This document shows, piece after piece, positions 15,701-33,822 of a stretch of 64,000 nucleotides of DNA; position 1 is the stretch's first letter, and every line of letters begins with the position of its first letter. The translations under genes and the position numbers were made by a program. The DNA comes from a virus (lineage: Duplodnaviria > Caudoviricetes): IMG/VR virus record IMGVR_UViG_3300010885_059224, positions 9,835 through 73,834 of that record. One strand, given 5' to 3'. The notes under the pieces were generated by a model. It did not search any database. It saw only the letters and a list, made by a program, of their open reading frames with translations, and was not told where the DNA came from.

Positions 15701-18537
15701 GAGCGGACACAACAACTATTTCCGCGGTTGTCAGGCAAAATTTAATAAACGGAGGTTATAGACTTATTGAATATAATATACCTGCCAAAGCATTGCCGTA
15801 TATTACTTACCCAGTTACAGGCAGCACAATCGATGTATATTCTCCAGATTTCCAAGATTATTACGGTAATACCACTACGTTTACAACAACCAACCCATTT
15901 TTAATCGTTTTAGCTAAAAATAATCCAACAAATTTTAATGCTGTGGGACTGCCTACAGGACTCACAATCAACCGCGATGGAAAAATAATAGGAAAGATTA
16001 CATCTGCACCAGCAGGCATATACGTTGTCACAATCTATGCTATCAACGCACTAGGCAACTCTCAAAGTATAACAATAAACATAAAACTCTCTACCGCGGT
16101 AGAAGAAATACCTGCATTCCAGGGTGACTCGTTTTGTTATAAATTTCCAGCTTTGAATAGCTTAATTAATGTTGAAGGCTGCTCATTCACAGTAACCGGC
16201 CGAGATGCAGCTAACCCAGCTCCAACTTGGCTTGGAGTAAGCAAAAGTATAAATTCTTCTTGTCACCTTTATTACTCTGGGGGAGATCCTGGCTTATCTA
16301 CTGGTACAACAAGTTTAATCTTATTAACGATAAACAATAACGATGTAATATCTCGGCGTTATTTTAATGTAACCTACTCTCCTATACCTAACATCTTCGG
16401 CCCTCAAAGATCTAATATTTGGCAGGTGGCGTATACGAACTACAAAAATAATGTTTATACCACCGAATTACCGTTAGCTAAAATAGAAGCCAGTCATTCT
16501 CCTACAAGTTATTCTGCTACGGGTTTGCCGTCTAGTTTGAGTATAGACTCAGCCGGTAATATTGTGGGCAGTTTAACCGTGCCGCCTGGTAACTACTATT
16601 TTACCATTTATGCAACCAATGAAGCTGGAAGAAGTGAAGGTGTTCAGTTCCAACTAAATGTTAGTTCTTCTCCCATTGAATATACAATATACAATAAAAT
16701 AGAATTCAGTCTTTATGCGTTTGGACCAGCTAATTCTTCATATTCATATTCAGGAACGCTTCCACCAGGGCTAACTTTTTACCCAACAACTCGTCCAATA
16801 TACGGAGATTTGATAGTGGGTTATGTAAATTTAACTAGCGATGCTTCATACCCAATAGACATAACTGTTCACAATGGAACCAGCAGCCTAAAATATTCAT
16901 TTCTTTTAATTTATGATTCTAATGCATTAACTATTACTAATAGCGGAACGGTATATCCAATAGTAATACCTGACTACGGTTTACGGAAATATACCAATAG
17001 CTCGCCATTACTCACCATAACCACAAATGTTCCAGCTACGTACTTTTACGGTAGTGGATTACCGCCAAGCCTAACTATTGATGCATCTACTGGGTGCATC
17101 ATTGGTGGGCCTGTTACTACTGAGGGGTATTATACCGCCACGATCACGGCAAAAAATTCGAAATATACAGCCACTGCAGAATATTTTTTCAATGTGGAGA
17201 ATAACGTAACCCGTTACCAGGCTGTGCACGGTGAGCCTGTATGTATACCGATAACAGCAGGTGTATACAACTATATTCTAAGTGCTGGTATTACCTCCGG
17301 ATATTTACCTGGGGGACTCTCACTAAACGGACAGTCAGGTGTAGATTGTGGAATTTATGGTTATGTTTCACAGGGCGCCCCCTCAGGAACATCTGTAGTG
17401 ACTATACGTAATAATTATATTGGTGGCTCCTTTAACCAAAATATTGCTATAAGTTACGTAGGAATACCTACAATAACAAGTATTGAAGTTGGCTCTACCC
17501 CAACCACAAGCACTAGTAGAGTTAACAGTTTTAAATTTAAGCCGTCTAGATATAATTCATACGGACCATACACTAAAGAAAACCCACTACTCACCGTAGT
17601 GGCCACAAATTCTCCAACGTCATTCATATATTCAGGATTACCAAGCAATTTAAGCATAGACAACTACGGAAACGTTGTAGGCATCCCATCCATTGTTGAG
17701 ACAGACGCGTTGTATTACGTATATGTTGTTGCGGTAAACTCCGTTGGTCGTTCGGGAGAGTATTTATTTACGATCGATTTAACAAAAACAAGCCCAAGTA
17801 TAAACTGGCAATCTCCAGGAGTATTGCTCTTTAGAGATACCGCGGAAAATGGAGATATATTCACCGCAACAGAAGGACATACCCCGCCGTATAGTGGAAC
17901 TTTTGTATACTCAATTGCTCCTACAGATAGGTTTGATATAGGCTCGCAAAATTTAAGTATCACTTTTAATCCAACCAACAGAGCAGACTATTCCTCTCTA
18001 AGCAAAACGTTCTTCTATAACGTATCACCCGCCGGGTTTAGAATAGTGTGGAATCCTGTCATATCTACGCTAACAAACACGGAATCTATAGACAGCAGGA
18101 TTCTGAATGCTTATGTTGTTTTAAATACGGACCCATCGTATCACCCGCAGGGTAGCTTTGAGTATACTATCTATGCATCTAGTGGAGCTACTGGCGTTTC
18201 GGCAAGTAATTATTCTCTCGATATGGGTAGCCCGGACATTCCAATTGATACAGTGGAGGGAGTGGTTATACGTCTTAAATTCACTCCAAACATATCCACA
18301 CGGTGGGAGCAGCTCCCGCAGTATGACTACAGAAATGTATTTTTCAAGAAGGTGAACCAGCCATCAGACTGGACTCCAACACCTACACCTGAGCCTACAC
18401 CTGAGCCTACACCTGAGCCTACACCTGAGCCTACCCCTGAACCTACACCTGAACCTACACCTGAACCTGAACCTACACCTGAACCTACACCTGAACCTGA
18501 ACCTACACCAGATCCTGATCCTGGTATGGGCGAATAG
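12799..18537 (+). CDS. giant tail fibre/adhesin with tandem Ig-like (putative-Ig type) repeats, paralog 2
   Basis: 1912 aa; repeated 'A.N.PTS(Y/F)...GLP.GL.I...G.I.G......G.Y..TI.A.N..G' units; Cys-rich N-terminal third; Pro/Thr/Glu tail. Confidence 0.75.
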   Translation: MSALEYLSNNALNSYPFKDGREANPDLPIPNDAFLDALFITSNHSIKRVYISRITQVQGNISIELSEVTSGVIGTLDFKLSDAVSHLNNQDKSFIAGSGTAWVIKLVFGPGISFLKGNRAPVTYTPQQTELLSSILQNYPRTVTSLKFQSYTPQGAISTQELTEVHKYIAGDIVHIANGANNEFSTGTGSVMYIDIDRGKGKGLWDPCSTGQIKNIYSVNEIIPSSVGEFFINADDCYSVKLLSASELSDLGSSTSSPTHIKTATNYANFSTPITPKAILSGLMDYVGHSAVAQNSVNVSFTSPEIGDLISENPENYRIIFNGGYIAEKITGATGAYTPGAVWAITGVWPANTTGAPFSIQQKKVSFNAISAAAGGHGFMMSNSCSAKCPPENINAFAKYMNRVTDGAAELYKIVNNNSQTYGTGNIDGAPFSSDSFNGVINSAYFKAYNFCQEPGSSRPISCNASFKKYFHEGRDIKITKGRDNYIFQIKKVLSSTRIIISPAIQTPDIFSALCDILNTPGTYYSFSVLDYGIKNSLNDAIINKNNKVATQNTPYIDLNYGTVEAYNTARDYGTFITSVIVIYNPSATSITYSISATVLGLASLVGTSVKIKTSKGDISYGATTGTIDCQDYNIYESIYFIPCSPSEHNLSAGGVQFEVNNTTHTPHVPIPYYINGAITAPSIPHSESSTELIAALCVSTTVVEDSITATQGKAFEYNITLLGNATDVKVAGDLPSWITLSHTTTPGDPVINNWKLSATNPDGISNKTYNITISGSGDTPVAAISLHLQYIAKPVLSYPVDDTAAGRAPFSYVLHIYPPDGGPKIKTTRQFTQGAPLMAILASNSPTSYSITGSIPNGLTVSGRGLIGKISLPESTTYPAVYNLTLSATNSAGTSKTATVALTIHDVGITTPWAITNTLFNYSIITAGDVISQTLISIIPDWLTFDGAINLSSTSKPKANFSGTYTGADTTTISAVVRQNLINGGYRLIEYNIPAKALPYITYPVTGSTIDVYSPDFQDYYGNTTTFTTTNPFLIVLAKNNPTNFNAVGLPTGLTINRDGKIIGKITSAPAGIYVVTIYAINALGNSQSITINIKLSTAVEEIPAFQGDSFCYKFPALNSLINVEGCSFTVTGRDAANPAPTWLGVSKSINSSCHLYYSGGDPGLSTGTTSLILLTINNNDVISRRYFNVTYSPIPNIFGPQRSNIWQVAYTNYKNNVYTTELPLAKIEASHSPTSYSATGLPSSLSIDSAGNIVGSLTVPPGNYYFTIYATNEAGRSEGVQFQLNVSSSPIEYTIYNKIEFSLYAFGPANSSYSYSGTLPPGLTFYPTTRPIYGDLIVGYVNLTSDASYPIDITVHNGTSSLKYSFLLIYDSNALTITNSGTVYPIVIPDYGLRKYTNSSPLLTITTNVPATYFYGSGLPPSLTIDASTGCIIGGPVTTEGYYTATITAKNSKYTATAEYFFNVENNVTRYQAVHGEPVCIPITAGVYNYILSAGITSGYLPGGLSLNGQSGVDCGIYGYVSQGAPSGTSVVTIRNNYIGGSFNQNIAISYVGIPTITSIEVGSTPTTSTSRVNSFKFKPSRYNSYGPYTKENPLLTVVATNSPTSFIYSGLPSNLSIDNYGNVVGIPSIVETDALYYVYVVAVNSVGRSGEYLFTIDLTKTSPSINWQSPGVLLFRDTAENGDIFTATEGHTPPYSGTFVYSIAPTDRFDIGSQNLSITFNPTNRADYSSLSKTFFYNVSPAGFRIVWNPVISTLTNTESIDSRILNAYVVLNTDPSYHPQGSFEYTIYASSGATGVSASNYSLDMGSPDIPIDTVEGVVIRLKFTPNISTRWEQLPQYDYRNVFFKKVNQPSDWTPTPTPEPTPEPTPEPTPEPTPEPTPEPTPEPEPTPEPTPEPEPTPDPDPGMGE
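18382..18510 (+). repeat. coding tandem repeat, 12-bp unit CCTACACCTGA(G/A), encoding (PTPE)n
   Basis: Roughly ten directly visible units with two 6-bp CCTGAA insertions; in frame in the 1912-aa ORF. Confidence 0.95.
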
Positions 18538-18595
18538 TTAATATTAACGAGTTAATTATGGTATATTTTAATTAAATGTGTAAATATCAAATACT

Positions 18596-20035
18596 ATGGC
18601 CATCAGTACACTAAATTTTTTAAATAAGAACCAGTTTAGGAGTTACCCACTCAAGGCCGGCAGCTCTTTAACTTCTATAGATGGCAAAATTATAAGCGAC
18701 GAATTATTTGTGGGAGCAAGCATCACGACCACGATCAATAGAAAAAACCTGTTCATTAAGCAGGTATACATAAATGGTGCGGAAATAAGAGTTACCATAG
18801 CGGCAGTCCTACAAAATTCAAATTTTGAAACACTTGGAATATGCTATGGAACCATAGAGTCAGACTTTACGGTTTTAAAACTAACTGAAACTGCTATGTT
18901 CACGAGCGGTACGCTTATAGTAGGCACATTAGACTCTGTTATTTCTCACTCTGGAGTTTATACATTCGATAACACTAGCGCCAACTTCGAAGAGTCTGTC
19001 GTTTTTTATTATACGCCGCCCCCAGTAAAAAGTTTACACTGTAAAGGAATTTCCCTGCGAGGAAATGTTAAGTTTGGGGTTTTGTCTAATCTTATAAAAT
19101 CAAGAATAGAAGGCTCCAATAAAATTAATTTTGGTGTTATATCCTCCGCTAGTGTTAATAGTTTGGCGGATAAATCTTCGGTATTTAATAATTGCCCAAC
19201 ACCAATAATAAGATATATAGATGGAGCAATACCGTTCTATCAGGCAGCTGATTCTGTGGATGCTCATAACTCCCCCAATTATCTTCCAGCTCTACAAGGT
19301 AATTTGTTTATGGTGGGCGTTTCCCCGCTATCATTTAAAAATCAACAAAATCTCAGTTCGTCACTGGGGCTAGTCGATATCGGTGGTATAAGCACAGAGG
19401 CAAAATCCATTACTAACGGCTCACCTATCACGCTTAATACTTTATGTAGTGCTAGAAACGCTGTACTTCCGCCAGTGGCGCCTATGTATATAAATAATGG
19501 CTTACTGGACGGATCATCCCCAGCAGCAGATGGAATTTCAAGTTATTATACTAAATCTAGTTACTACCCTAGTAATTTTTACTCTGTTGTAGACCCCGAG
19601 TTTACCTGGTGGCCTCAATTTTTTACTTATAGTAGTATTGCACCAGCCACCCCGATTACCGCGAATATTGGAGCTACTGGATTAATAGGCGTGGTGACAC
19701 TCCCAGCAGAAACCGTGGTTAAAAAATACTCAATAGCTGTGGTTTTTGTGAATACTGGAGTAGCCACGTTAGACTTAACTTTGGTACTTACTAGAAAAGC
19801 TCAAGATGGCACCACGACCACATCCAAGCCGGAGGGTTTTCATAACATCATAGTTAATCCAAACAGCTCCATAATCGTGAGAACAGTTAACGACAGCAAC
19901 TATCCAAGACATGAAATAACTGGATCTGGCTATCCAATACCGATGGAGATTGCCACAGGTGATACATTTTATGTATATTTTAATAATGTATCAGGAGGGG
20001 TCTCAACCCTACAACCATACCTATACTATAGATAA
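18596..20035 (+). CDS. tail-associated protein, paralog 3
   Basis: N-terminal 'FLNKNQFRSYP'; 'IDGAIP' motif with flanking Cys. Confidence 0.55.
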   Translation: MAISTLNFLNKNQFRSYPLKAGSSLTSIDGKIISDELFVGASITTTINRKNLFIKQVYINGAEIRVTIAAVLQNSNFETLGICYGTIESDFTVLKLTETAMFTSGTLIVGTLDSVISHSGVYTFDNTSANFEESVVFYYTPPPVKSLHCKGISLRGNVKFGVLSNLIKSRIEGSNKINFGVISSASVNSLADKSSVFNNCPTPIIRYIDGAIPFYQAADSVDAHNSPNYLPALQGNLFMVGVSPLSFKNQQNLSSSLGLVDIGGISTEAKSITNGSPITLNTLCSARNAVLPPVAPMYINNGLLDGSSPAADGISSYYTKSSYYPSNFYSVVDPEFTWWPQFFTYSSIAPATPITANIGATGLIGVVTLPAETVVKKYSIAVVFVNTGVATLDLTLVLTRKAQDGTTTTSKPEGFHNIIVNPNSSIIVRTVNDSNYPRHEITGSGYPIPMEIATGDTFYVYFNNVSGGVSTLQPYLYYR

Positions 20036-20037
20036 CA

Positions 20038-20805
20038 ATGTCATCATATACCGTACTATCTTGGCAGAATGAAAATGGGCTAACCAATTACCCATTTTCT
20101 AGCCCTATGCAAATAAATGATTTGGTTGTAGATGCTTCATTTATTCAGTTCGATAATTATACACCAATATTGAACAGCATTCTTGTAGGTAGAGACTACA
20201 TGGAGTTTAGAATAACTTTTGATAACGGTGTAGTTTTGGCTAAGTATCTTAAAACATCGTACGACTCCGGGCTTAGGAATCTTAGATTTTATGACTATGG
20301 TGGAAATAGGTATCTTGGTTGTTTGACAATTGGTGAAGGTGCTGTAACTGCATGGACTAGCTATGTTGGAGAAAACTTGATTATTTCACTTCCATTTGTT
20401 GCGACAACAGTGCGAAGCATACCATTGAACGACGCGGTGTATAAGCTAGATAATTCCTATGGTACCTTGGTTTTAGGTGCAAACCAAGATATAGCGGATA
20501 GCTTTATACAGGTAGGTAATCTTGTGTACCAAAAATCTGCCGGAGGTAATACTGTTTTTTATAACACTTCGGTATCCCCGGCAGCGATTACATTTAACGC
20601 TGTAGGTAATAGCTCTATATCCGCCAGTAATAAAACCCACCCTTTAAAACAGATCAATCTTACTAAACCTATAGATAACAATATTACGTTAAACGGAAAT
20701 GACATTGTTAAATTTAAGTCTATAAACAATCAAAATTTATCTATATATGTTACCGGCAGCGGAATATCAAATTCTAGCCCATTATTAACAACATTAGCCT
20801 TATAA
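20038..20805 (+). CDS. tail-associated protein, paralog 4
   Basis: N-terminal 'WQNENGLTNYP'; C-terminal 'INLTKPIDNNI'. Confidence 0.5.
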   Translation: MSSYTVLSWQNENGLTNYPFSSPMQINDLVVDASFIQFDNYTPILNSILVGRDYMEFRITFDNGVVLAKYLKTSYDSGLRNLRFYDYGGNRYLGCLTIGEGAVTAWTSYVGENLIISLPFVATTVRSIPLNDAVYKLDNSYGTLVLGANQDIADSFIQVGNLVYQKSAGGNTVFYNTSVSPAAITFNAVGNSSISASNKTHPLKQINLTKPIDNNITLNGNDIVKFKSINNQNLSIYVTGSGISNSSPLLTTLAL

Positions 20806-20806
20806 T

Positions 20807-21964
20807 ATGGAAATAGTACAATGGCTTAACGAAAACGCCCTGAGGGCTTACCCATTAATAGAGGGTAAGACTGTAGAGCAAATACCTGATGGAGTCATAC
20901 TAGACTTATTACTTAATATTTCCGAAGGCACAGATCCCGCAACAGCTAAATTAACCGCACTAGTTGTTAATTCTACAGATATAACTGTTATTTTTACAGA
21001 TAACTTTTTTGATTATAATTATGCTGAGCATGGAGTCTCTGGCATTGATAATATTACATTTCCAATATACATAAGAAATGCTTCAGGCAGCCTAGTAGTA
21101 CTTGGAGAGGACTTGAAAAAAATAACAAGAGGCACTGTATTTAATGTAGATGTCCCTGTTGAACCCGCCACAGTATACCAATTTAGTGGTGCATGGAATG
21201 GTGTTACTAGCATATCGGGAAATCCCAATTACCTTAGCGGTGGGTTCCAAATAGCCAACATTATGAACTATTCAGGACAACCATCAGTAGGGTACAATAC
21301 CGTAAGTGTTGGCCTTGGTAATCCTGGGTGGGGTCCCCAAATACAAGCAAACCCACATAGTTATGAAATTGTATTTAATGGTGGATTAACCGCAGATATC
21401 GCTACAGCTTCAGGTAGTCCGTATCCAGGAGGCCGCTGGACTTTTACCGGTGAATGGCCAGCTAACTCAAATGGCGCCCCACTAACCATAAGATCAAAAA
21501 ATACAGATTCATTTGCACCATTTCTCCCGCTACAGTCGGTTGACGGTGTTGGCTTGACTGGAGATATCGAATTTGTTCCTGGTTATAACTACGCGATAAA
21601 TTTTAATAACAATGCGATAAATATGACAGTTGGCTACCGATTAGGCCTAAAAATGGATTGCACAACCAAATTTCTACAGGATAAATACCTGGATTGTGGG
21701 GATATCGTATCTTATATTAACGGAGTACCTCCGGATGACTCTGGAGTGTTTAAATTCACTGCAGGTAGCAATATTTATTTATTCGATGGTGATTCGGTAC
21801 AAGAGCCCATACAGGATACAAACCTAGCCCCACCGTTGAGTGTTTATACAGATATATCAGGGGACAAACAAACAGGATTAAATAATAACACTATATTTGT
21901 AGGGTTGACATTCCTAGAGTCTGATTTATGCTCTCCTATACAACTACTACCCACAAATAACTAA
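20807..21964 (+). CDS. tail-associated protein, paralog 5
   Basis: N-terminal 'WLNENALRAYP'; 'CGDIVSYINGVPPDDSGVF' motif. Confidence 0.55.
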   Translation: MEIVQWLNENALRAYPLIEGKTVEQIPDGVILDLLLNISEGTDPATAKLTALVVNSTDITVIFTDNFFDYNYAEHGVSGIDNITFPIYIRNASGSLVVLGEDLKKITRGTVFNVDVPVEPATVYQFSGAWNGVTSISGNPNYLSGGFQIANIMNYSGQPSVGYNTVSVGLGNPGWGPQIQANPHSYEIVFNGGLTADIATASGSPYPGGRWTFTGEWPANSNGAPLTIRSKNTDSFAPFLPLQSVDGVGLTGDIEFVPGYNYAINFNNNAINMTVGYRLGLKMDCTTKFLQDKYLDCGDIVSYINGVPPDDSGVFKFTAGSNIYLFDGDSVQEPIQDTNLAPPLSVYTDISGDKQTGLNNNTIFVGLTFLESDLCSPIQLLPTNN

Positions 21965-21968
21965 AAAT

Positions 21969-22286
21969 ATGAGCGAAGCAAAAAAAAGAATGGTGTTCAC
22001 TAGCGTAAACCAAATATTAACACTTATAAAAACCACACCCGCGCTACAACAAATGCCGAGATTCAGCGGGTTGAAAGATAACGAACTAAGTAAGACCCCT
22101 ACAAACAGCTGCAATTGTGCAAGAAACATAGTAACTCCAGATGTAAACAAGCAGATATTGGAGAGCACGTTATCCTCTCTAAATGATACTGACTTCTTTA
22201 CCATAAAGAACGCACTAGGGCTAGATGAACTGTGCTACTACAAGAGGAATAGTGCCACCAGTAAATTAGAGATGATTTGCATCTAG
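21969..22286 (+). CDS. hypothetical protein
   Basis: 105 aa, CNC motif; end of the structural operon. Confidence 0.6.
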   Translation: MSEAKKRMVFTSVNQILTLIKTTPALQQMPRFSGLKDNELSKTPTNSCNCARNIVTPDVNKQILESTLSSLNDTDFFTIKNALGLDELCYYKRNSATSKLEMICI

Positions 22287-22307
22287 TTTGCTGATATACT
22301 CGGTTAT

Positions 22308-22967
22308 ATGAGTAATCCATCCCAGCATCCAGTATACTACATAAATTCTGCCGACGGTACGAGCTTACCCGTACCATTAGACTCTATTGACGGCACTGTA
22401 GAGCCCAGACATAGCATAATCAGGGGCAGGAAGAACTCACCACTTAGAGAGTATACTTCTCCTATTGGGTTTATGGGGTTTCCTGGCGTACCATACGAGC
22501 AGGGAGTACCAAATCCCTCAACGTATTCTCAAGGAGAGGACGTTGTTTTAGACGCCATGCTTTACTATAAGGGAGAACCTGTTAGCGAAGAAAAGTATAA
22601 TATTACTGCCGTTGTTAAGTCTGACCCTCATGCCCTAAATGCTATCTGGACAGGTATTGTTGATAATGGCATATACAAGGGAGGTAAGTCTGGTATTTAT
22701 GAGATATGGATACCTAGCGCGAATACCTCCAAGATGTTTGCCGGTTCATACTACCTAGACATTGTTTTAAAGGAACCTGTGGGTACTGGGATGGGACCTA
22801 AAGATAGAACAATTTTCGTTGCTAGCTATATTTTCAACATAGTGTATAGCTCAGCCAGTCCTAATCCGGAGAGTGCGGATGTTGGCGATAATCAATTAAA
22901 TAGAAGCACCTTAAAGCCATCTTGGCCCCCAGTGGCGGACACCATCGGAACATCATCTGTACGTTGA
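22308..22967 (+). CDS. putative virion/baseplate-associated protein
   Basis: 'SQGEDVVL...IPSANTSKMFAGSYYLDIVL' fits an Ig-like (BppU-N-like) pattern; weak similarity only. Confidence 0.4.
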   Translation: MSNPSQHPVYYINSADGTSLPVPLDSIDGTVEPRHSIIRGRKNSPLREYTSPIGFMGFPGVPYEQGVPNPSTYSQGEDVVLDAMLYYKGEPVSEEKYNITAVVKSDPHALNAIWTGIVDNGIYKGGKSGIYEIWIPSANTSKMFAGSYYLDIVLKEPVGTGMGPKDRTIFVASYIFNIVYSSASPNPESADVGDNQLNRSTLKPSWPPVADTIGTSSVR

Positions 22968-23020
22968 AATTTAGGTAATATCTTCAACCTGTACCCCCCA
23001 GGCTAAATATACATTCTGGC

Positions 23021-23029
23021 TGGTATAAT
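23021..23029 (+). promoter_or_regulatory. extended -10 promoter (TGGTATAAT)
   Basis: TG-n-TATAAT located 7 nt before the ATG at 23037, implying a leaderless transcript. Confidence 0.5.
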
Positions 23030-23036
23030 TAATTAG

Positions 23037-23330
23037 ATGGCAAGTTATATCGCTGTCTATTTTTTAACTATGAAGATAGCCAAATATTTACGAAGGATAG
23101 ATTGGACGGCAGATAGTAGGTTATATAGCTTATCCACCAAGTTAGATGGACATAGCTATATAATCGTTACTGCAACAAAGTCAGATTTCTCAGAACCGGA
23201 AACTTTGATTTTCGGTGCAGATGAGAGAGGGAACCCAATAGATTTTGAGGAATTACCAGGAACAGGAGTCGGAAGCATTAATCATGACGCAGCAATAATA
23301 AAGGCGGGATATACTCCGTTTTACAACTAA
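23037..23330 (+). CDS. hypothetical phage protein
   Basis: 97 aa; 'YIIVTA...ETLIFGADERG...HDAAI..AGY'. Confidence 0.65.
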   Translation: MASYIAVYFLTMKIAKYLRRIDWTADSRLYSLSTKLDGHSYIIVTATKSDFSEPETLIFGADERGNPIDFEELPGTGVGSINHDAAIIKAGYTPFYN

Positions 23331-23344
23331 CCCACACAAAATAC

Positions 23345-23632
23345 ATGAGCCACGAAATAGTAGACAAGTTGATACAGGAAAACACAGATCTCAAAAATAA
23401 CTTAGAGGTACATGCTAACATGGCGGTACAGCTTACAGTAACAAGAAATGAGCTAATGACTCAACTTGAGAAGCTTAATGAAAAGATTAAGGTACTGGAG
23501 AGTCATCCCAAGATTGTAAAAATTAATAAGAATGATGATAGAACATTCGTAAGCATCGACGACTTGTTTGAGATCCGTAGATCAGATAAAGCAGAAATAA
23601 AGAGACTCAGCCAACTTTTAAATGGGTGTTAA
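23345..23632 (+). CDS. hypothetical coiled-coil protein
   Basis: 95 aa with a heptad pattern; AC-rich leader. Confidence 0.6.
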   Translation: MSHEIVDKLIQENTDLKNNLEVHANMAVQLTVTRNELMTQLEKLNEKIKVLESHPKIVKINKNDDRTFVSIDDLFEIRRSDKAEIKRLSQLLNGC

Positions 23633-23674
23633 CCCCCCCATTTATAATTATGGTTTTTTGCGGTATAATAAAAT

Positions 23675-24255
23675 GTAACCACGATTTGCTGGGCTCTATT
23701 AATTTAGGGTATAGCGGCAAATCAATTGGTTGACAACCCCACACACCCAACAACGTGCATCTTCTTCACAGAAGATAGCATGTTACATTTAGCTTTTTGG
23801 GGTGCACAGATCCTCATATTTTGAAACACTGCCTGAATAGGGCGCAGGGAGAACCTGCGACTACACATACCCGGTTATCTGTTTTCATAGGGACTATGTG
23901 GGTTGCAACACAGGCAGTGTTTCTAACTCGTCTATGCGAGTATAAATAGCCAACTAGGCATAGAGCGTCCCGGCTAAAATAGCTGGGGGATTGGGCGCAA
24001 GAATGGAACGTATCGTAATTAAGTTACGCTCCCCTAATAGGTCAATATGGTATAACCCATATTTGGTGACAACCTCATAGGTCTCTGCAAAGACAATGAA
24101 CAAATCACCCGCCTCGCTAATGACAATTGCAGAAGTCTTGGCAGGAACGCGCCCCGAATTTAAATAAGCTTGTGAGTAGAGCGCCCGGAGATCTGGCGAC
24201 ACGGTTAGTAGATTGATTTTTAACCACACGCTGGTGGTATTTAATCTGCTAAATG
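23675..24255 (+). ncRNA. candidate large structured ncRNA A (about 580 nt)
   Basis: Lies in a ~700-bp gap with no plausible + ORF; TATAAT at 23664; perfect 13-bp helix 23823-23835/23911-23923 closing a multibranch loop; many further hairpins with G-U pairs. Confidence 0.65.
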
Positions 24256-24330
24256 GTGATGATCACACAAACTTATTTTTAACTGTCCCCTCCCCTAAAC
24301 CAAAACACCAACCATAACCATAAAACAAAC

Positions 24331-25113
24331 ATGGCTAAAAACGTAGAAGTAATAGATTGGGCTTCACCTGCCCGTAAGGCAAAAAGAGACAATGATCTTT
24401 ATATCAATAGGGATCTCAAGAAGCTCATGACATATCGTGAGTATAGAAATCAACCAGTTAATGTTTTATCATTACCTGCAGAGAAGTGGCTGTGGGAGAG
24501 CCAGTTGATTCAGAACTTCCCTAATAATAAGATTAACTTTCTAGGCACAGAGTCAAATCCTGTAGTTTATAAGAAAGCGCTAGAAGTAGCTACCACGATT
24601 AATGGTAAAAACGTAAAAACAGAACTACTACCCAACAAATGGGAAGAAGTGGTGGTTAGAGATTTTAACTCTAGGATGTTTAATCCCACAGATGCTGGTT
24701 TTGACATCATTTACGGGGACTTCATGGGTACATTTAATAGAGGCATTATAGGCTATATAGAAGAACTATTGAGTGATACCGAAATGTTAAAACCTCTTGG
24801 TAATATTATTTTTACATTCATGCTTGCTCGTGGATGTAAATATACCAGAGAGGAAACAATAAAGATCGGGGAGAAATCCGCTTATAGACATCAGCTCTAT
24901 GTTGATGACGATAAGATGTGGCTACGGAACACCAAAAACAACACCTCAAATCTGGTACATACATATGCTCTGGGCATTATGGAAACAGTTGTGTTAATCG
25001 CCAAGAAGTTTGGTAAGGTATTAATACCCGCTAAACCTCACGTTTATTATAGCCCAGGAGCTAACGGAGCAGAACTTCCAGAAGGCAGCTTTTGCTTTAC
25101 TAGGCTTAAATAA
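24331..25113 (+). CDS. class I SAM-dependent methyltransferase-like protein
   Basis: Rossmann-like order: 'VNVLSLPA' (motif I-like, without GxG), 'FLGTE' (motif II), 'FDIIYGDFMG' (motif IV), 'LKPLGNIIFTF'. Confidence 0.55.
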   Translation: MAKNVEVIDWASPARKAKRDNDLYINRDLKKLMTYREYRNQPVNVLSLPAEKWLWESQLIQNFPNNKINFLGTESNPVVYKKALEVATTINGKNVKTELLPNKWEEVVVRDFNSRMFNPTDAGFDIIYGDFMGTFNRGIIGYIEELLSDTEMLKPLGNIIFTFMLARGCKYTREETIKIGEKSAYRHQLYVDDDKMWLRNTKNNTSNLVHTYALGIMETVVLIAKKFGKVLIPAKPHVYYSPGANGAELPEGSFCFTRLK

Positions 25114-25135
25114 TTTAATACACTTATAAAAATTT

Positions 25136-25569
25136 GGGGGCGTTACTGGCACTCGACTCCAGAAATAGATAACACACCTACATGCGGAGGATCTCAGTTG
25201 GCCTCCTTAATCATCTGGGAAAAAACTAAAAGCAGCCTCTAACGAGACGCTTGCTCCTAGCCTCGCCGAGGCAGACGCCATTCTTGCAAAGTTTGGCTAT
25301 GCTGACGCTGAGCTCCTCGCTGCCTAACCGCAGCGGAGAAATCCGCTAGTTGCAATAACGGTACAAGGACGCCCGATGCCATGTACTTCAAACGGGTACC
25401 TCGATTATATTGTGAGGGTATAATTCATATATGCACCAATTGCATTAAGTTGGGAATCTGAACTACGCATTTACACATTATTGTAGTTCTTATATTAAAT
25501 GTGAAAAGCATGTACACGGTTGTTTGAAATATCTGGAACACAGGGGTTCGAATCCCCTCGCCTCCACCA
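25136..25569 (+). ncRNA. ssrA: tmRNA
   Basis: 5' GGGGGCG...CTCGAC and 3' GGGGTTCGAATCCCC-T-CGCCTCC-ACCA; G3-U70 Ala identity pair; pk1 GGAGG/CCTCC; tag ORF 25232-25327 ending LAA-stop. Confidence 0.95.
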
Positions 25570-25574
25570 ATTTG

Positions 25575-26325
25575 AATGTCGAACCCCGCTCCCCTCTTGT
25601 CCAATACCATGGACTGAGGGGAGCAACATTTTATCCGAGAAATCCCATTGCGATAAGCTGGCAGCACATTAGAGCTGATCCAGTGTGTCAGAAGAACTCG
25701 TAGACCGAAGACGTTTTGGGCGAATAGGTCAATTAATTTTCCTCCTAGGGTGAGGTCGCTCCCCTTGCTCATAGCTTGACGAATACTGCACGACTACAGT
25801 TATCGTTAAAGCGAAAGAGACCGCAGTTCCCTGCACGTGTAATCCCTCTATTATATCAGGCATGAGTAATAAGAAACATGACTAGTCATCATGGGGGAGA
25901 GAAGCTAGCTGCGGGTGGAGGAACACTTTTTATCCCAGTAGTTGTATATAAAACCCACACTGAGAAGCACGTCAGCCGCCGTGTGTATACGTGGAAATCC
26001 TGAAGATAAACGATACATCCTCTCATAGGCATACAGGTGATGAATGTGAGAACAAAGGAAATCAACCATCTAGGAGCTACAACTACTGGGAAAATTTGGT
26101 AATGTATTTTATCGGTTAAATCATTAATGTTACAGCCGTCTGTGGCCGCGAGATATCATATCTTTCCCGCCCAAAAAAATAACAGATAGAATAATTCAAA
26201 GGGGTCCAAACCTGTAGATTTATTCTAGCACTATAAAGTAACAGCCATTAACCATTTTCTAAATCTGACACACTCAGGCTTGGGAGCACTGGTCCGGCAG
26301 TGACTAACACAATCCGGAAAATTTT
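25575..26325 (+). ncRNA. candidate large structured ncRNA B (or nested RNA array)
   Basis: Lies in a ~900-bp gap with no + ORF; long-range 11-bp helix 25682-25692/26264-26274 encloses three domains, one closed by a perfect 14-bp helix 25933-25946/26078-26091. Confidence 0.7.
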
Positions 26326-26362
26326 ATTTGCCACATAACCTATATAGGTCTATTGTGATTCT

Positions 26363-26443
26363 AGCTCAGGACAACCAAAAACCCTCTGGTATTAGGCGTA
26401 TGCTCCAATGGCACGTGGAGTATTTTAAGTCCTGTCCTGAGCT
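26363..26443 (+). ncRNA. candidate small structured RNA C (81 nt)
   Basis: Perfect 11-bp closing helix AGCTCAGGACA/TGTCCTGAGCT with internal hairpins. Confidence 0.5.
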
Positions 26444-26471
26444 CTAATTTTTAGCTATCAACATAAAGCAC

Positions 26472-26693
26472 ATGACACACAAAAAAACCACAGTAGAAAT
26501 TCCACAATGGTGGGAAGCAACAGCAGACAACTATAATGATTTCTGGAATATGCAAAGGGCGTACAGCCTGGCAGGATTAAACACAAGCTATAAAGAGATA
26601 GCCCAATACAACACTCCCCCATATTTGGCTATATTTTGGGTAGGTAAACGACCTGACCAGGTTATTGAAAAATATTCCGAGAAATCCGTTTGA
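26472..26693 (+). CDS. hypothetical protein
   Basis: 73 aa; AC-rich leader like other genes in this window. Confidence 0.55.
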   Translation: MTHKKTTVEIPQWWEATADNYNDFWNMQRAYSLAGLNTSYKEIAQYNTPPYLAIFWVGKRPDQVIEKYSEKSV

Positions 26694-26718
26694 CAGGGCT
26701 GCAATACTAGCTTAGGGT
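26690..26718 (+). promoter_or_regulatory. possible sigma-70 promoter
   Basis: TTGACA-N17-TAGGGT, 8 nt before the ATG at 26727. Confidence 0.35.
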
Positions 26719-26726
26719 CAAAAACC

Positions 26727-27029
26727 ATGAGTAAAACTACCACACAAAAAGAAAGCATCCTAGAGGAAGCCCTTCGTTTGACGTCTGGTGATCGTCGTAG
26801 AGACTATGACCACCCAGCACCAAATCACGAAAGAATATCCACACTATGGAATGCTTATCTATCAGTTAGAAAAGATCCAGAGGCGGAGATTTCTGCCTAC
26901 GACGCAGCAATGATGATGATGCTACTAAAGGTGGCCAGGGATGTATATACATCCAAGCGCGATAACTTCGTTGATGCTATCGGTTATATCCGTTGCGCAG
27001 CTATTATCGCAGGATACGAAGAACAATAA
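26727..27029 (+). CDS. DUF6378-like phage protein
   Basis: 'ILEEA...GDRRRDY...NHERI..LWNAYL...MM.LLKVAR...DNFVDAIGY'. Confidence 0.75.
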   Translation: MSKTTTQKESILEEALRLTSGDRRRDYDHPAPNHERISTLWNAYLSVRKDPEAEISAYDAAMMMMLLKVARDVYTSKRDNFVDAIGYIRCAAIIAGYEEQ

Positions 27030-27054
27030 TTAACCAACAATATAAATAAAAATT

Positions 27055-27195
27055 TGATCTGACGGTATGGAAAAGAACATACATTTGCTACGCGGTAAGT
27101 TGTCCGCAGCAACCCTGTGCTTCTGGAAATTCCGGGGGCGAGCTTGCAAGCCGAGGGAAACCAAAACAGTGATGGAGTAGTGACCATCCAGATCA
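27055..27195 (+). ncRNA. candidate structured RNA D (141 nt)
   Basis: Closing helix TGATCTG/CAGATCA with internal hairpins (GTATG/CATAC, GCGG/CCGC, GATGG/CCATC and others); GC-rich island between AT-rich spacers. Confidence 0.6.
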
Positions 27196-27216
27196 TTAAA
27201 ATTAACACATAAAATT

Positions 27217-27423
27217 ATGCACATTTGGCAAACCAAACAAATTACTAAATCCCTTCCAACATGGGACGTTAAAAAAATGATGGCCAACAGACCCAAGGGT
27301 TTGAAGGATGACGAATGGAAAGAAATGGTGTCTAACGCAAAGATGGAAAAACTTATTGTTTTAAACCAAGTCCCAAAACACCTACTCAAGAAAGATCCTA
27401 GGTTCACCCAGGATAAAGAATAA
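27217..27423 (+). CDS. hypothetical protein
   Basis: 68 aa; TAA-T-ATG junction to the next gene. Confidence 0.55.
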   Translation: MHIWQTKQITKSLPTWDVKKMMANRPKGLKDDEWKEMVSNAKMEKLIVLNQVPKHLLKKDPRFTQDKE

Positions 27424-27424
27424 T

Positions 27425-28057
27425 ATGGGATTATTTGATACCATTATAGTAGAAAAAGCCCTTCCCCTACCCAAGAAAGCCAAAGAAGCTTTCAAGGGTA
27501 AAGATTGGGGTAAAGTAGATTTCCAGACGAAAGATCTAGAGGAATGTATGCAAACATATTACCTCAAAAAGAATGGTGATCTTATATTAGAAAAAATTGA
27601 AGGAGACTATGAAGAATTATCAGAAGAAGAGCTTAAAGAAGCTAAACAGAAGTATAGTCCAGGGTATTATCCTGCAATTAAGTTCACAGAGACCGGCAGA
27701 TCTTTAGTTAAGCAGAAAATTACCCAGAGCGTTAATTTCTACACAGGCAGAGATGATAATGAAGGAAATCAATGGTGGCTAGAGTTCGTGGCCGTATTCG
27801 ACGGCGGTAAGTTAGCATCACTTAAAGCCCATAAAGTAGAGTTAACCAGAACAGCTGCCGAGGTTAAAAGAGCAAATGATGAATTCAGAGCTAGACTAGA
27901 AGCAGACCGAAATCATCCATGGAACAAAACCAGAATGGCGCTAAACAAGGCATCTTTTGGATACTGGGGAGCTACTTGGAGGTTCATAGCAAAAACCTCA
28001 AGAAAAGCAGGTCAAGGCCTAGACAAGCTAGGATTTTGGATCTTTAGAAATATGTAA
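27425..28057 (+). CDS. conserved hypothetical phage protein (MGLFD...QTKD type)
   Basis: 'MGLFDTI', 'FQTKDLE', 'WLEFVAVF..GKL'. Confidence 0.7.
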   Translation: MGLFDTIIVEKALPLPKKAKEAFKGKDWGKVDFQTKDLEECMQTYYLKKNGDLILEKIEGDYEELSEEELKEAKQKYSPGYYPAIKFTETGRSLVKQKITQSVNFYTGRDDNEGNQWWLEFVAVFDGGKLASLKAHKVELTRTAAEVKRANDEFRARLEADRNHPWNKTRMALNKASFGYWGATWRFIAKTSRKAGQGLDKLGFWIFRNM

Positions 28058-28063
28058 TATGAT

Positions 28064-28261
28064 TTTTGACGGCAGCATCATAAATACGGCCGGACCCTTC
28101 CTTCCTTTAGCACCCCTCACAAAGGGTATTGTTAAACAGGTAGACTGGCGTGGTCGGGTAGAAGAGCTCTCCTGTTTGGCACACTATAATAGTGCTGAGT
28201 AACTTCTTTAACCATGGTAACCCGGATGCTGAAAAGGTTCTGCAGAGCCGTACCGTCAAAA
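28064..28261 (+). ncRNA. candidate pseudoknotted RNA E (198 nt)
   Basis: Closing 9-bp helix 28064-72/28253-61; crossing helices 28073-79/28225-31 and 28085-90/28247-52; ends 4 nt before tRNA-Asn. Confidence 0.65.
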
Positions 28262-28265
28262 CTAC

Positions 28266-28340
28266 TCCTGATTAGCTCAATGGTAGAGCAGTGAGCTGTT
28301 AACTCGCATGTTGTTGGTTCGAGTCCAGCATCAGGAGCCA
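28266..28340 (+). tRNA. tRNA-Asn(GTT)
   Basis: Acceptor TCCTGAT/ATCAGGA, anticodon loop CTGTTAA, T-loop TTCGAGT, encoded CCA. Confidence 0.95.
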
Positions 28341-28428
28341 GATTTGAGATGTTTGGGTCGCTCCCAACTGAAGGGCAAACGCAGGATCAGGCCAACGAGA
28401 TACAAATAAACCCTGCACAATTTTAAAT

Positions 28429-28499
28429 TACCCTGTGGTGTAACGGTAACACTTTAGTTTTTGGCACTAACATTCATGGTTCAAATCCATGCGGGGTAG
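28429..28499 (+). tRNA. tRNA-Gln(TTG)
   Basis: Acceptor TACCCTG/CGGGGTA, stem TTAGT/ACTAA with loop TTTTGGC, T-loop TTCAAAT; CCA not encoded. Confidence 0.9.
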
Positions 28500-28516
28500 T
28501 ATATAATAATTTATCT

Positions 28517-28590
28517 GGAGTTGTAGCTCAATTGGTCAGAGCACCGCCCTGTCACGGCGGGGGTTGCGAGTTCGAGCCTCGTCAACTCCG
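28517..28590 (+). tRNA. tRNA-Asp(GTC)
   Basis: Acceptor GGAGTTG/CAACTCC, loop CTGTCAC, discriminator G; CCA not encoded. Confidence 0.95.
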
Positions 28591-28604
28591 GATTACATTT
28601 TAAT

Positions 28605-28679
28605 GCACGATTAGCTTAGCGGTAGAGCAGGTCCTTTACACGGACAAGGTCGGGGGTTCGATTCCCTCATCGTGCACCA
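28605..28679 (+). tRNA. tRNA-Val(TAC)
   Basis: Acceptor GCACGAT/ATCGTGC, loop TTTACAC, encoded CCA. Confidence 0.95.
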
Positions 28680-28680
28680 C

Positions 28681-28753
<73 letters not shown>

Positions 28754-28763
28754 CAAATTTAAT

Positions 28764-28849
28764 GGGTAGATACCGAAGCGGTCAAACGGGGTAGACTGTA
28801 AATCTACTGGCATTAGCCTTCGAAGGTTCGAGTCCTTCTCTGCCCACCA
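28764..28849 (+). tRNA. tRNA-Tyr(GTA)
   Basis: Acceptor GGGTAGA/TCTGCCC, loop CTGTAAA, long variable arm, encoded CCA. Confidence 0.95.
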
Positions 28850-28851
28850 AT

Positions 28852-28935
28852 TTTGCTAGATCAGGGGACAAGGGGCTACATGCCCCGTTCTGTAAGCTGT
28901 ATACAAGCGACAAGGACTTACCCTGATCTGGCAAA
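28852..28935 (+). ncRNA. candidate small structured RNA F (84 nt)
   Basis: 15-bp closing helix TTTGCTAGATCAGGG/CCCTGATCTGGCAAA (one U-G pair) enclosing two small hairpins; starts 2 nt after tRNA-Tyr. Confidence 0.55.
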
Positions 28936-28953
28936 TACTATAAAACACAAACC

Positions 28954-29130
28954 ATGCACATATACTCATCTAAAACAATTCTAGCATTCTCATTATTAAT
29001 GTACTTTGCCATCTCATTCTTTGTAATGATGAGCTGGTTTGGGATAATGAAAATAAGTTCTTCTATATCATATGATACAGCTATGAAAGAAAATAAAGCT
29101 AGATTAACACACCAGCCCATTAAGTTCTAA
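28954..29130 (+). CDS. small putative membrane protein (58 aa, not in the ORF track)
   Basis: MHIYSSKTILAFSLLMYFAISFFVMMSWFGIM...; one hydrophobic segment; AC-rich leader; next gene starts 4 nt later. Confidence 0.5.
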   Translation: MHIYSSKTILAFSLLMYFAISFFVMMSWFGIMKISSSISYDTAMKENKARLTHQPIKF

Positions 29131-29134
29131 AACT

Positions 29135-29347
29135 ATGACTACCAAAGAAAAGAAAGTAGACCATTACAAGGCTACAGAAAAAATGACAGAAGCGGAATGC
29201 TTGAAGTATTGTAAAAAGAAAGCCGCAGAGGACCTGGAGTTATTTCCTGACCTCACATTTGACAAAGAAAAGTTAATATCTGGATATATGGGTATGTACT
29301 ACAAGCCCAAAAAAGCCGTAAAAGATGAGAGTAAAGTACCTCAATAG
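29135..29347 (+). CDS. hypothetical protein
   Basis: 70 aa ORF. Confidence 0.55.
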   Translation: MTTKEKKVDHYKATEKMTEAECLKYCKKKAAEDLELFPDLTFDKEKLISGYMGMYYKPKKAVKDESKVPQ

Positions 29348-29501
29348 ACTAGAGCAATTGATGGTTGGGAATACATTATTGTCCAAAAGCTATTCATATA
29401 ACCTCATTAAAGATGCCAAGGCAGCGGTTAGATTCGGAGCTAAGGCGTCAGAAAAAACATTACTAGGGGCAGTATATATTGCCGCAGTAAAACAAAACTA
29501 A
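29325..29501 (+). CDS. small hypothetical protein (58 aa, not in the ORF track)
   Basis: MRVKYLNRLEQLMVG...AAVKQN*; fills the gap before 29523. Confidence 0.4.
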   Translation: MRVKYLNRLEQLMVGNTLLSKSYSYNLIKDAKAAVRFGAKASEKTLLGAVYIAAVKQN

Positions 29502-29522
29502 ACACCAAAACATAACACACAT

Positions 29523-29897
29523 ATGGGATTAGATATGTACGCAAGAAGCTACAAGGTCGTGGATACCCTTGGTGGTATAAGAGTTAAACCAAACAGTGAT
29601 ATTAGTGAAATACACTATTGGGAAAAACATCATGACCTACATGGTTGGATGCACAAGCTATATCTGGAGAAAGGGGGAACCAAAGAATTCAACTGTGAAT
29701 ATGTAAATCTAGACATGGAAGATCTGGACAGGTTAGAAAAGGATCTCAAGATGGAAGGATTACCTCCTACCACAGGATTCTTCTTTGGAAACAATCCTCC
29801 TGATGAAGATTCATTAGAGGATGACATGGAGTTTATCCGTAAAGCCAGAGATGAAATCCGTCAAGGAAGGCTAGTATATTACTCTAGCTGGTGGTAA
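29523..29897 (+). CDS. conserved hypothetical phage protein (MGLDMY type)
   Basis: 'MGLDMY', 'YWEKHHDLHGWM', 'FNCE', 'LPPTTGFFFG', 'VYYSSWW'. Confidence 0.8.
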   Translation: MGLDMYARSYKVVDTLGGIRVKPNSDISEIHYWEKHHDLHGWMHKLYLEKGGTKEFNCEYVNLDMEDLDRLEKDLKMEGLPPTTGFFFGNNPPDEDSLEDDMEFIRKARDEIRQGRLVYYSSWW

Positions 29898-29982
29898 CAT
29901 GCAGCTGTTGACTCTGTCCCTGCATCCATAGTGTGAAAGTTTAAAAAACGTTAGCACTAATGCTGGATGGTGTGGATCAGGT

Positions 29983-30020
29983 GGCCTCCCCTTAAAAATC
30001 CTCACAATTAGGGGGAGGCT
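29983..30020. terminator. hairpin between convergent genes (possible bidirectional terminator)
   Basis: GCCTCCCCTTAA/TTAGGGGGAGGC stem between a + gene and a - gene. Confidence 0.55.
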
Positions 30021-30024
30021 AACC

Positions 30025-31308: not shown

Positions 31309-31333
31309 GCTAAAATAAGGTAAATATAAAATT

Positions 31334-32386: not shown

Positions 32387-32408
32387 AAAAGTAAAAAAAT
32401 AAAATAAT

Positions 32409-32450
32409 ACCTCCCACGCCTCTCACTGAAGCGCACCAGGGAGGTTTTTT
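32409..32450 (+). terminator. intrinsic terminator-like hairpin
   Basis: ACCTCCC...GGGAGGT followed by a T tract. Confidence 0.55.
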
Positions 32451-32464
32451 ATTGTACACACAAT

Positions 32465-32656
32465 ATGAAGTATGAGGTAAAGGTTAAGAGAATATATACT
32501 ACTATTATATCCGTGGAGGCTGATGCCCCCTGGGATGCAAAAGACAAAGCCGCCGAAATACTACGGGTAGGTAAGTACTCGGACGGATCACAAATACCTA
32601 CATTCAAACCAGAAAACACACTCCCACAAGTAGAGTGGGGTTTCTGGGAAATATAA
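32465..32656 (+). CDS. small hypothetical protein
   Basis: 63 aa; 'YEVKV.....ISVEADAP.DAKDKA' is a common small-phage-protein pattern. Confidence 0.6.
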   Translation: MKYEVKVKRIYTTIISVEADAPWDAKDKAAEILRVGKYSDGSQIPTFKPENTLPQVEWGFWEI

Positions 32657-32667
32657 ACACACAACAA

Positions 32668-33120: not shown

Positions 33121-33128
33121 TCTACAAC

Positions 33129-33157
33129 TTGCAAAAGATATGAAACATTGATATCTT
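33129..33157 (+). promoter_or_regulatory. sigma-70-type promoter for the lone tRNA
   Basis: TTGCAA-N17-TATCTT with an extended TG; overlaps the inverted repeat AAGATAT/ATATCTT. Confidence 0.4.
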
Positions 33158-33176
33158 AACAAGAATTAAGATTTAA

Positions 33177-33248: not shown

Positions 33249-33265
33249 AATCTAATAAAACCTAA

Positions 33266-33820: not shown

Positions 33821-33822
33821 AG

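Follow-up and report, generated by a model that had tools for sequence, protein, structure and literature searches.

A 698-nt non-coding gap (23633-24330) in the DNA of a freshwater phage is a composite, on the + strand, of a known self-cleaving ribozyme and an undescribed conserved RNA. The ribozyme belongs to the Pistol class, and the RNA that follows it is a domain of about 290 nt whose helices covary among related phages. The gap lies in a stretch of 64,000 nt (the window) that spans positions 9,835 to 73,834 of IMG/VR virus record IMGVR_UViG_3300010885_059224, a record of 73.8 kb that is estimated to be 38% complete. The window contains tail-fibre-like genes, one transfer-messenger RNA (tmRNA) and seven tRNA genes, of which six form a cluster.

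Genes in the window are packed almost head to tail. A crude tiling with open reading frames (ORFs; 73 in the window) gives a median gap of 6 nt. With a spurious 91-aa ORF left out, the 698-nt gap, which is flanked by a 95-aa ORF and a 260-aa ORF, is among the three largest in the window, and the other two contain the tRNA cluster and the tmRNA. An earlier reading of this DNA made from its letters alone (the sequence-only reading) had called a gap of about 700 bp exceptional, and by this measure it is. The same reading described a single structured RNA of about 580 nt beginning near a TATAAT at 23664. All of the helices that it listed could be located, and the region is structured, non-coding and on the + strand; it is not uniform, having a Pistol ribozyme midway.

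Folding energy alone gives no strand, because the whole region 23664-24330 folds better than its shuffles in both orientations (z of -4.77 on + and -5.73 on -, 20 shuffles each). The assignment to the + strand comes from the orientation of the Pistol ribozyme and from one-sided stem substitutions that keep pairing as G-U. Five such substitutions between the window and its closest relative, L002, stay paired only as G-U on the + strand, which bears out an earlier argument from G-U-compatible mismatches; one further stem change breaks a pair.

How far does this RNA extend beyond the window? Relatives were found through the neighbouring 260-aa protein, which is 96% identical to that of the window in L002, 57% in L004 and 33% in L006. 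L007 was added by a conserved DNA pattern; L005 and L011 are duplicates of L004. With the window included, the RNA domain has been found in 5 distinct sequences on 6 contigs. All five have a GGTATAAT box, a leader, a ribozyme, the downstream domain and, further downstream on the same strand, a tmRNA; the ribozyme of L004 in this plan is a sub-threshold twister-like element. Three different conserved patterns yielded only these contigs in IMG/VR, and a scan of JGI metagenomes yielded only a duplicate of L004. There were 0 matches to the conserved pattern in species-representative prokaryote genomes (one per species). In the phage GenBank collection, neither a DNA search with 23600-24330 nor tblastn with the 260-aa protein had a match, and megablast of 15000-35000 gave only a 40-nt tRNA-Gly stretch from Pseudomonas phages.

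Pistol ribozyme within the gap

A scan of the window at Rfam gathering thresholds finds the Pistol ribozyme (RF02679) with 61.5 bits against a gathering score of 34.5, aligned over model positions 1-68 of 68 (Table 1). In a permissive Rfam scan (E <= 10) of 23500-24450 on both strands, Pistol is the only match. None of the Rfam 15 families beyond Pistol, which include riboswitches, GOLLD, ROOL, RNase P, 6S and group I and II introns, matches this interval, so that a check against Rfam proposed with the sequence-only reading returns a ribozyme and leaves the remainder of the region without a family.

The stems P1, P2 and P3 pair at all positions, and the cmscan alignment has no non-canonical marks. 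P2 is CCAA/UUGG. P3 is the CCGGCTA/TAGCTGG helix, which had been listed earlier without being recognised as part of a ribozyme; in L006 and L007 it has another sequence and keeps its pairing. The P1 loop UCUAUGC is complementary at 7 of 7 positions to GCAUAGA in the P2-P3 junction, and these sequences depart from the model consensus on both sides. According to Harris et al. (2015, PMC4604425), Pistol requires a pseudoknot that joins its P1 loop to the P2-P3 junction. Most of the upper-case consensus positions match. The departures are, at unpaired positions, a C for one U of the UUA junction and an A for the U of the GU site, and, in a stem, an A-U pair in P2 that replaces an upper-case C-G pair and is still paired.

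The 2-nt junction between the 3' strands of P3 and P2 is G23989 A23990. As described by Harris et al. (2015), the scissile junction of Pistol is usually GU; its identity varies and its length of 2 nt is strictly kept. From this description and the 2-nt junction of the model, the cut is predicted between G23989 and A23990. One Pistol lies at the homologous site in L002, L006 and L007 (three of the five relatives' records), and none is found elsewhere in those records.

The ribozyme of the window adds one more ordinary member to the Pistol family. It resembles the class in being full-length and high-scoring, in having P1-P3 and the pseudoknot, and in its phage context, which is common for the class; it differs in its fixed position, with a leader before it and a conserved structured RNA after it.

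Conserved RNA downstream of the predicted cut

The downstream domain (23990-24280) has no Rfam family, and across the relatives its length is about 290-345 nt. In its 5' half, P1 closes a junction that holds the hairpins P2, P3, P4-P5 and P6. The junction strands of the 3' half, GUGAGUAGAG, ACAC and GGUGAUGAUCACAC, are invariant, and about 23 junction nucleotides of this three-way junction do not vary. Each of the five sequences has a U-rich run after P7. P7 and this run are likely the 3' end of the domain; a terminator scan did not call the U-tract at 24274-24280.

Two helices of the sequence-only reading, AATATGG/CCATATT (24044-24050 / 24057-24063) and TAGTAGATTGA/TTAATCTGCTA, are present as hairpins in this domain. 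A third, CTGCAA/TTGCAG, stands in part: both strands are present and complementary, each lies in a hairpin loop, and their pairing has no covariation signal either way. CTGCAA (24085-24090) is the P5 loop (CUGCAA) and TTGCAG (24127-24132) is the P6 loop (UUGCAG). These loops are invariant in all five sequences, a pattern by which covariation neither supports nor refutes their pairing, and a loop-loop contact between P5 and P6 is plausible from their complementarity. A palindrome in the P8 loop was considered as a dimerisation signal and rejected, since its register varies between lineages. Unrestricted duplex energies between the domain and the tmRNA were no better than those of shuffles, which is an uninformative test of antisense pairing.

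Independent, unconstrained minimum free energy (MFE) folds of the window, L004, L006 and L007 give the same helices P1-P9. Eleven invariant blocks split the domain into segments of near-constant length; P8, for example, is 17 nt in all five sequences. RNAalifold on a MAFFT alignment finds compensatory changes in 22 of 56 pairs. In the MAFFT alignment A4, 19 of 51 pairs are changed on both sides, and 88.8% of cells pair, against 34-40% when the partners are slid by 1-3 columns. The A4 covariation score is matched by 0 of 500 shuffles, which ignore the kinship of the sequences. P7 and P8 alone have both-sided changes in 9 of 15 pairs. P2 and P9 are hairpins in every fold, fell out of register in MAFFT, and were excluded from the pair counts.

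The identity of the domain to the window is 99% in L002, 67% in L004, 72% in L006 and 75% in L007. The corresponding values for the methyltransferase-fold gene that encodes the 260-aa protein are 97.6%, 69% and 58% in L002, L004 and L006, with no comparison for L007. Among the distant relatives, the domain (67-75%) is thus about equal to or above this gene (58-69%). We regard the domain as a candidate new RNA family.

The ribozyme position in L004

The record of L004 is 93% complete and has no Pistol anywhere. At the Pistol position (element at L004 3555-3661), a cmscan search of 761 nt finds twister type P1 (RF03160) with 29.6 bits and an E value of 3.3e-4. In an unconstrained MFE fold the element has the twister stem order P1, P2, P3, P4, P5. 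P1 is 6 bp, P2 is 4 bp and P4 is 3 bp with an 8-nt loop; UAA, with the U-A site, follows P1, and the predicted cut is after its U. CUC in L4 is complementary to GAG in L1 (T1), and AC in L2 is complementary to GU in L4 (T2), in the T1/T2 pairing scheme given for twister in a review (PMC5408937). In both pseudoknots each partner departs from the model consensus, with complementarity kept.

The stem order of an unconstrained fold and the paired departures in T1 and T2 raise our confidence in the assignment. The low score would be explained by the inability of a covariance model to credit compensation in pseudoknots. We consider that the L004 element is probably a type-P1 twister. It resembles that type in its stem order, in the U-A site that follows P1 and in the complementarity of T1 and T2, and differs in scoring far below the gathering score and in having several conserved nucleotides changed; it is absent from the window. 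Nothing credible was found in other Rfam families in the homologous regions of L004 and L007.

Upstream sequences

TATAAT occupies 23664-23669, and TTTATA lies 17 nt upstream of it. All five homologues have the block GGTATAAT unchanged at an equal relative position, and from this we infer a promoter role for the box at 23641-23669. Of the contigs from four lake metatranscriptome runs that map to 21500-27500, none covers 23510-24916, which for contigs is uninformative either way.

The leader (23674-23923) is strongly folded and variable. The MFE fold of 23672-23925 has z = -6.91, which 0 of 200 shuffles equal, and it contains each of the three structures noted earlier: a long hairpin, a hairpin at 23752-23784, and a multibranch domain closed by 13 bp. 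The 5' part of the first hairpin, H1 (GATTTG.TGGGC), is common to the window, L002, L004 and L007. In place of the second, H2, L006 and L007 have a hairpin of other sequence between conserved flanks. The multibranch domain, M, is closed by the perfect 13-bp GAAACACTGCCTG/CAGGCAGTGTTTC (23823-23835 / 23911-23923), and inside its closing helix are CGCAGG/CCTGCG and CACATA/TATGTG. Between the window and L002, M is 77.6% identical and its flanks 96-99%; the five substitutions that stay paired as G-U on the + strand, and the one that breaks a pair, are in M.

A further element, X, is a three-way junction of about 120 nt that is whole in L002 (3368-3492), L004 (3432-3552) and L007 (2014-2138). By alignment and consensus fold, the window retains its 3' arm alone. 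X consists of a 16-bp stem, a hairpin with the invariant 10-nt loop AAAGGUCCAC, and a variable third arm. It adjoins the ribozyme on its upstream side in L004 and L007 and lies upstream of domain M in L002; the leader of L004 is about 50 nt plus X. X has no Rfam match, and a search found copies only in contigs already known to carry the RNA.

Coding potential of the minus strand

Does the gap contain a genuine gene? The sequence-only reading had pointed to a 91-aa ORF on the minus strand (23954-24229) and to the question of whether it has conserved protein homologues. Both the window and L002 keep this frame open, the two indels between them summing to zero, and the ORF has two matches in protein databases. 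Both matches come from near-identical DNA (99% and 84% identity), and no Pfam or PHROG family was found. The homologous stretch of L004, L006 and L007 has at least 3 stops in each frame of both strands. Substitutions by codon position are flat, at 22/32/31, 22/32/28 and 28/28/32 in L004, L006 and L007, respectively. The ORF also overlaps the ribozyme, starts with GTG and without a visible ribosome-binding site, and opposes the local gene direction, 65 of the 73 crude ORFs being on the + strand. At the level of the tools used, a 91-aa gene is refuted, and we give it next to no probability.

Genes adjoining the RNA

The 260-aa protein has no sequence match in Pfam or the Protein Data Bank (PDB). 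Its structural model has a predicted local distance difference test (pLDDT) value of 94.5. All of the best 500 Foldseek matches kept lie at E <= 0.001; among those listed at the top of the ranking, nearly all are methyltransferases, with E about 1e-8 and a template modelling (TM) score of 0.4-0.5. E56, E74 and D130 are invariant in 41 homologues. Judged by a Rossmann-like fold with acidic residues ending strands 2 and 4, the model has the fold of a class I S-adenosylmethionine (SAM) methyltransferase, an assignment that applies to the fold only.

In the window, L002 and L004 the RNA comes first, then the methyltransferase gene, then the tmRNA. L006 has the tmRNA immediately after the RNA and the methyltransferase gene about 1.4 kb further on. 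In L007 the tmRNA also comes directly after the RNA, and the locus ends short of any methyltransferase gene. The suggested tie between the RNA and the adjacent methyltransferase is therefore loose; the one neighbour that stays constant across the family is the tmRNA, which lies under 1.2 kb downstream of the RNA on its strand. Ahead of the tmRNA, the spacer of L006 and L007 has a promoter-like site, TTGNAA-17-TATTAT, that was read by eye. The neighbourhood as a whole is an RNA island made up of the non-coding RNA (ncRNA), the methyltransferase-fold gene, the tmRNA, further conserved non-coding DNA and tRNAs.

A fourth methyltransferase homologue, at 30% identity, is in L016, a locus with no tRNA or tmRNA; in the record to which it belongs (G001), a tmRNA lies 50 kb away. 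A 623-nt ORF-free stretch directly upstream of that tmRNA (L020, 1774-2396) has no Pistol, credible Rfam match or invariant motif, and by these searches the RNA family could not be extended to G001.

Several further observations concern these neighbours. The 260-aa ORF is preceded by a conserved C/A-rich leader with no visible Shine-Dalgarno sequence (window 24281-24330, L004 3950-4000); nearby ORF starts likewise have none, which may hint at the host group. The predicted tag of the tmRNA is unusually long, at 31 residues. Exact-match contigs covering most of the tmRNA occur in four lake-water RNA libraries from four studies, and one RNA-library contig joins the end of the 260-aa ORF to the start of the tmRNA. 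In comparison with the window, L002 carries an insertion of about 650 nt (5226-5876) about 15 nt before the 3' end of the tmRNA gene; its tmRNA scores 38.7 bits in Rfam with both acceptor-stem ends missing, and the insertion could be an intron or an integrated element. Past the tmRNA, a + strand stretch of about 820 nt (25731-26553) matches L004 5246-6068 at 71% identity, neither stretch having a long ORF, and may be another conserved non-coding RNA, perhaps the first large RNA of the sequence-only reading. Neither RtcB nor SmpB was found in G000, G002 and G003; circularisation or repair of the RNA by a phage ligase is unsupported.

Elsewhere in the window, a borderline abiF RNA motif (RF03085; 37.3 bits against a cut-off of 37) lies in a 78-nt gap at 32410-32445 (+). 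A tail-fibre-like protein of 1912 aa is encoded at 12799-18537 (+) and has a long PTPEP/PEPT repeat at its end.

Table 1. Features of the gap and adjoining genes in the window
Feature	Position	Strand	Description
Putative sigma-70-like promoter	23641..23669	+	TTTATA, 17 nt, TATAAT; consensus scan, 10/12 matches
Leader hairpin H1	about 23674..23735	+	MFE folds
Leader hairpin H2	23752..23784	+	MFE fold; followed by conserved GTTACATTTAG
Element X remnant	23800..23813	+	3' arm only; L002 has 110 additional bases after window 23799
Multibranch leader domain M	23823..23923	+	MFE fold; window and L002 only
Pistol self-cleaving ribozyme	23926..23994	+	Rfam RF02679
91-aa ORF	23954..24229	-	Judged spurious
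Conserved domain, 5' half	23993..24154	+	Multi-helix junction closed by P1 (GGGCGC/GCGCCC); hairpins P2-P6
Conserved domain, 3' half	24166..24273	+	Three-way junction: closing helix P7, hairpin P8, long hairpin P9
U-rich tract	24274..24280	+	Directly 3' of P7; possible 3' end or terminator
260-aa protein	24331..25113	+	Class I SAM-methyltransferase fold (model); no Pfam or PHROG family
Phage tmRNA	25136..25569	+	76.8 bits; always 3' of the RNA in relatives

Discussion

Starting from the computed Pistol match, conservation, covariation, absent coding signal and synteny with the tmRNA, we propose a route that would include promoter use, cleavage in vivo, a defined 3' end, a stabilising effect of the cut and a link to translation. 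In this proposal, which we favour with moderate confidence, the locus encodes a promoter-driven phage ncRNA whose conserved 3' part is released from its leader by whichever ribozyme is present. Transcription would start just after the GGTATAAT box, so that the variable leader (H1, H2, the remnant of X, and M) is made first. The Pistol at 23926-23994 would then fold and cut the chain between G23989 and A23990. The 3' product would run from 23990 to about 24280 (about 290 nt), beginning with a 5'-hydroxyl and comprising two junction domains, the closing helix and the U-tract. This product would be the functional molecule, and the ribozyme would serve to detach the leader with its triphosphate. 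The job of the ribozyme would be independent of its class, since one relative seems to rely on a twister at this position. P1 would form right at the freed 5' end; it shares one or two G with P2 of the Pistol, and release by the ribozyme and closure of P1 may for that reason be coupled. The benefit would be a stable, correctly folded RNA with a 5'-OH end that evades ribonucleases (RNases) dependent on the 5' end. Such an end would escape RNases that sense a 5'-monophosphate. From its genetic company, the RNA probably has a part in how the phage handles host translation or RNA metabolism.

Several points weigh against this proposal. The cleavage junction of the Pistol is GA, where GU is commonest. 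The twister match in L004 is below the gathering score (29.6 against 67.2 bits), and it is absent when the whole L004 record is searched at E <= 0.01. The cut of a Pistol lies near the 3' end of the ribozyme and that of a P1 twister near the 5' end, so the domain of L004 would carry about 100 extra nt and the precise 5' end would not be conserved. If both predicted ribozymes cleave, the conserved trait would then be a cut between leader and domain, not an exact terminus. The structure tested for covariation was written from the fold of the window itself, which is one of the sequences compared, and the shuffle control has no correction for relatedness. The five sequences are effectively four lineages, L006 and L007 being 78% identical and the window and L002 99% identical in the domain. 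Finally, in the window, L002 and L004 the sequence that separates the RNA from the methyltransferase ORF has no visible promoter, and the domain there may be a 5' untranslated region (UTR).

Could the domain be a cis-acting leader, with P7 and the U-tract controlling read-through into the methyltransferase gene and the tmRNA, as in a riboswitch or attenuator, and with the ribozyme only trimming it? The run of U after P7 in all five sequences would fit such a device, as would the roughly 23 invariant junction nucleotides, which are often found in ligand pockets. In the window, L002 and L004 the methyltransferase ORF comes only about 50 nt on, after the conserved CA-rich leader with no promoter-like site between, and an RNA-library contig spans the end of that ORF and the start of the tmRNA. 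The arrangement does not hold across the family, however: in L006 and L007 the tmRNA is next, behind a spacer with the TTGNAA-17-TATTAT promoter-like site, and the methyltransferase gene of L006 is about 1.4 kb further. The terminator scan makes no call at the site, and no Rfam riboswitch matches at E <= 10. We judge a cis-acting leader unlikely. It is quite improbable that the functional product is the leader itself (H1, H2, X and M), ending in a 2',3'-cyclic phosphate, or that both halves act as small RNAs. The leader does fold very well (z = -6.91), X and M have long perfect closing stems with structure-preserving changes, and the Pistol stays on the leader fragment. Against this, the leader is the variable part of the locus: M is present in two of the five sequences and X in three, the L004 leader is only about 50 nt plus X, and the window and L002 share 77.6% identity in M, as against 99% in the 3' domain.

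The same variability could belong to a relic in decay, or to a mobile ribozyme cassette, that serves no function at present. Modules vary by indels, X is reduced to one arm in the window, the class of ribozyme varies between relatives, and, according to Harris et al. (2015, PMC4604425), Pistols occur scattered in the vicinity of phage genes. A relic would not be expected to covary in its helices, to keep long invariant blocks, or to hold its position in phages whose neighbouring protein is 33-57% identical, and this reading is disfavoured, with a very slim chance of being correct. Returning to the released ncRNA that we favour, a bolder form of it is that the 3' product is a new class of phage RNA, with pistol and twister recruited to one site, and works with the tmRNA and the methyltransferase-fold protein, as cofactor or regulator, in phage-directed trans-translation or RNA modification, or else is a new aptamer or catalytic RNA. 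The last alternative is raised by the roughly 23 invariant junction nucleotides. We put this extension forward tentatively, as possible and rather doubtful.

Relation to known ribozymes and structured RNAs

GOLLD and ROOL are large structured ncRNAs of phages and bacteria, of unknown function, that are multi-domain, conserved, phage-borne and near tRNA-type genes. In comparison with them, the RNA described here is smaller, is predicted to be processed by a ribozyme, is so far on 6 contigs, and matches no Rfam family but Pistol at E <= 10. As a candidate family it combines covariation that is strong for few sequences, large invariant junctions and linkage to the tmRNA, and the role of phage tmRNA is poorly understood. 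In a full-text literature search for tmRNA, self-cleaving ribozyme and phage together, no title addresses such a locus.

The glmS leader (PMC6765202), as described there, is alike in that self-cleavage occurs in a 5' leader, the downstream RNA has a 5'-OH, and its fate is set by the cut. It differs in that cleavage of glmS depends on a metabolite and destabilises an mRNA, whereas here there is no evident ligand or mRNA target and stabilisation is proposed. Apart from glmS, the same source calls the biological roles of self-cleaving ribozymes in bacteria and phages "largely elusive", and the Pistol class is without an established biological role. The locus offers a concrete case for this question, with a Pistol at a fixed position and a probable twister in a sister phage. 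If both ribozymes cleave, their shared requirement would be the cut itself, and maturation of an end or removal of a leader from a phage ncRNA would be the purpose. If the swap of ribozymes is true, it would be a natural exchange in sister phages that shows what orphan ribozymes are for.

The closest functional analogy is the pairing of theta ribozymes with tRNAs in gut phages (Kienbeck et al. 2024, PMC10879173). In both cases a small ribozyme adjoins a structured RNA of a phage, and theta ribozymes are proposed, according to that paper, to mature an RNA end in place of a protein nuclease. Theta ribozymes are of the hepatitis delta virus (HDV)-like class and, as described there, act at the 3' end of a tRNA partner, whereas in the phages studied here the partner is an undescribed RNA of about 290 nt and the predicted cut is on its 5' side.

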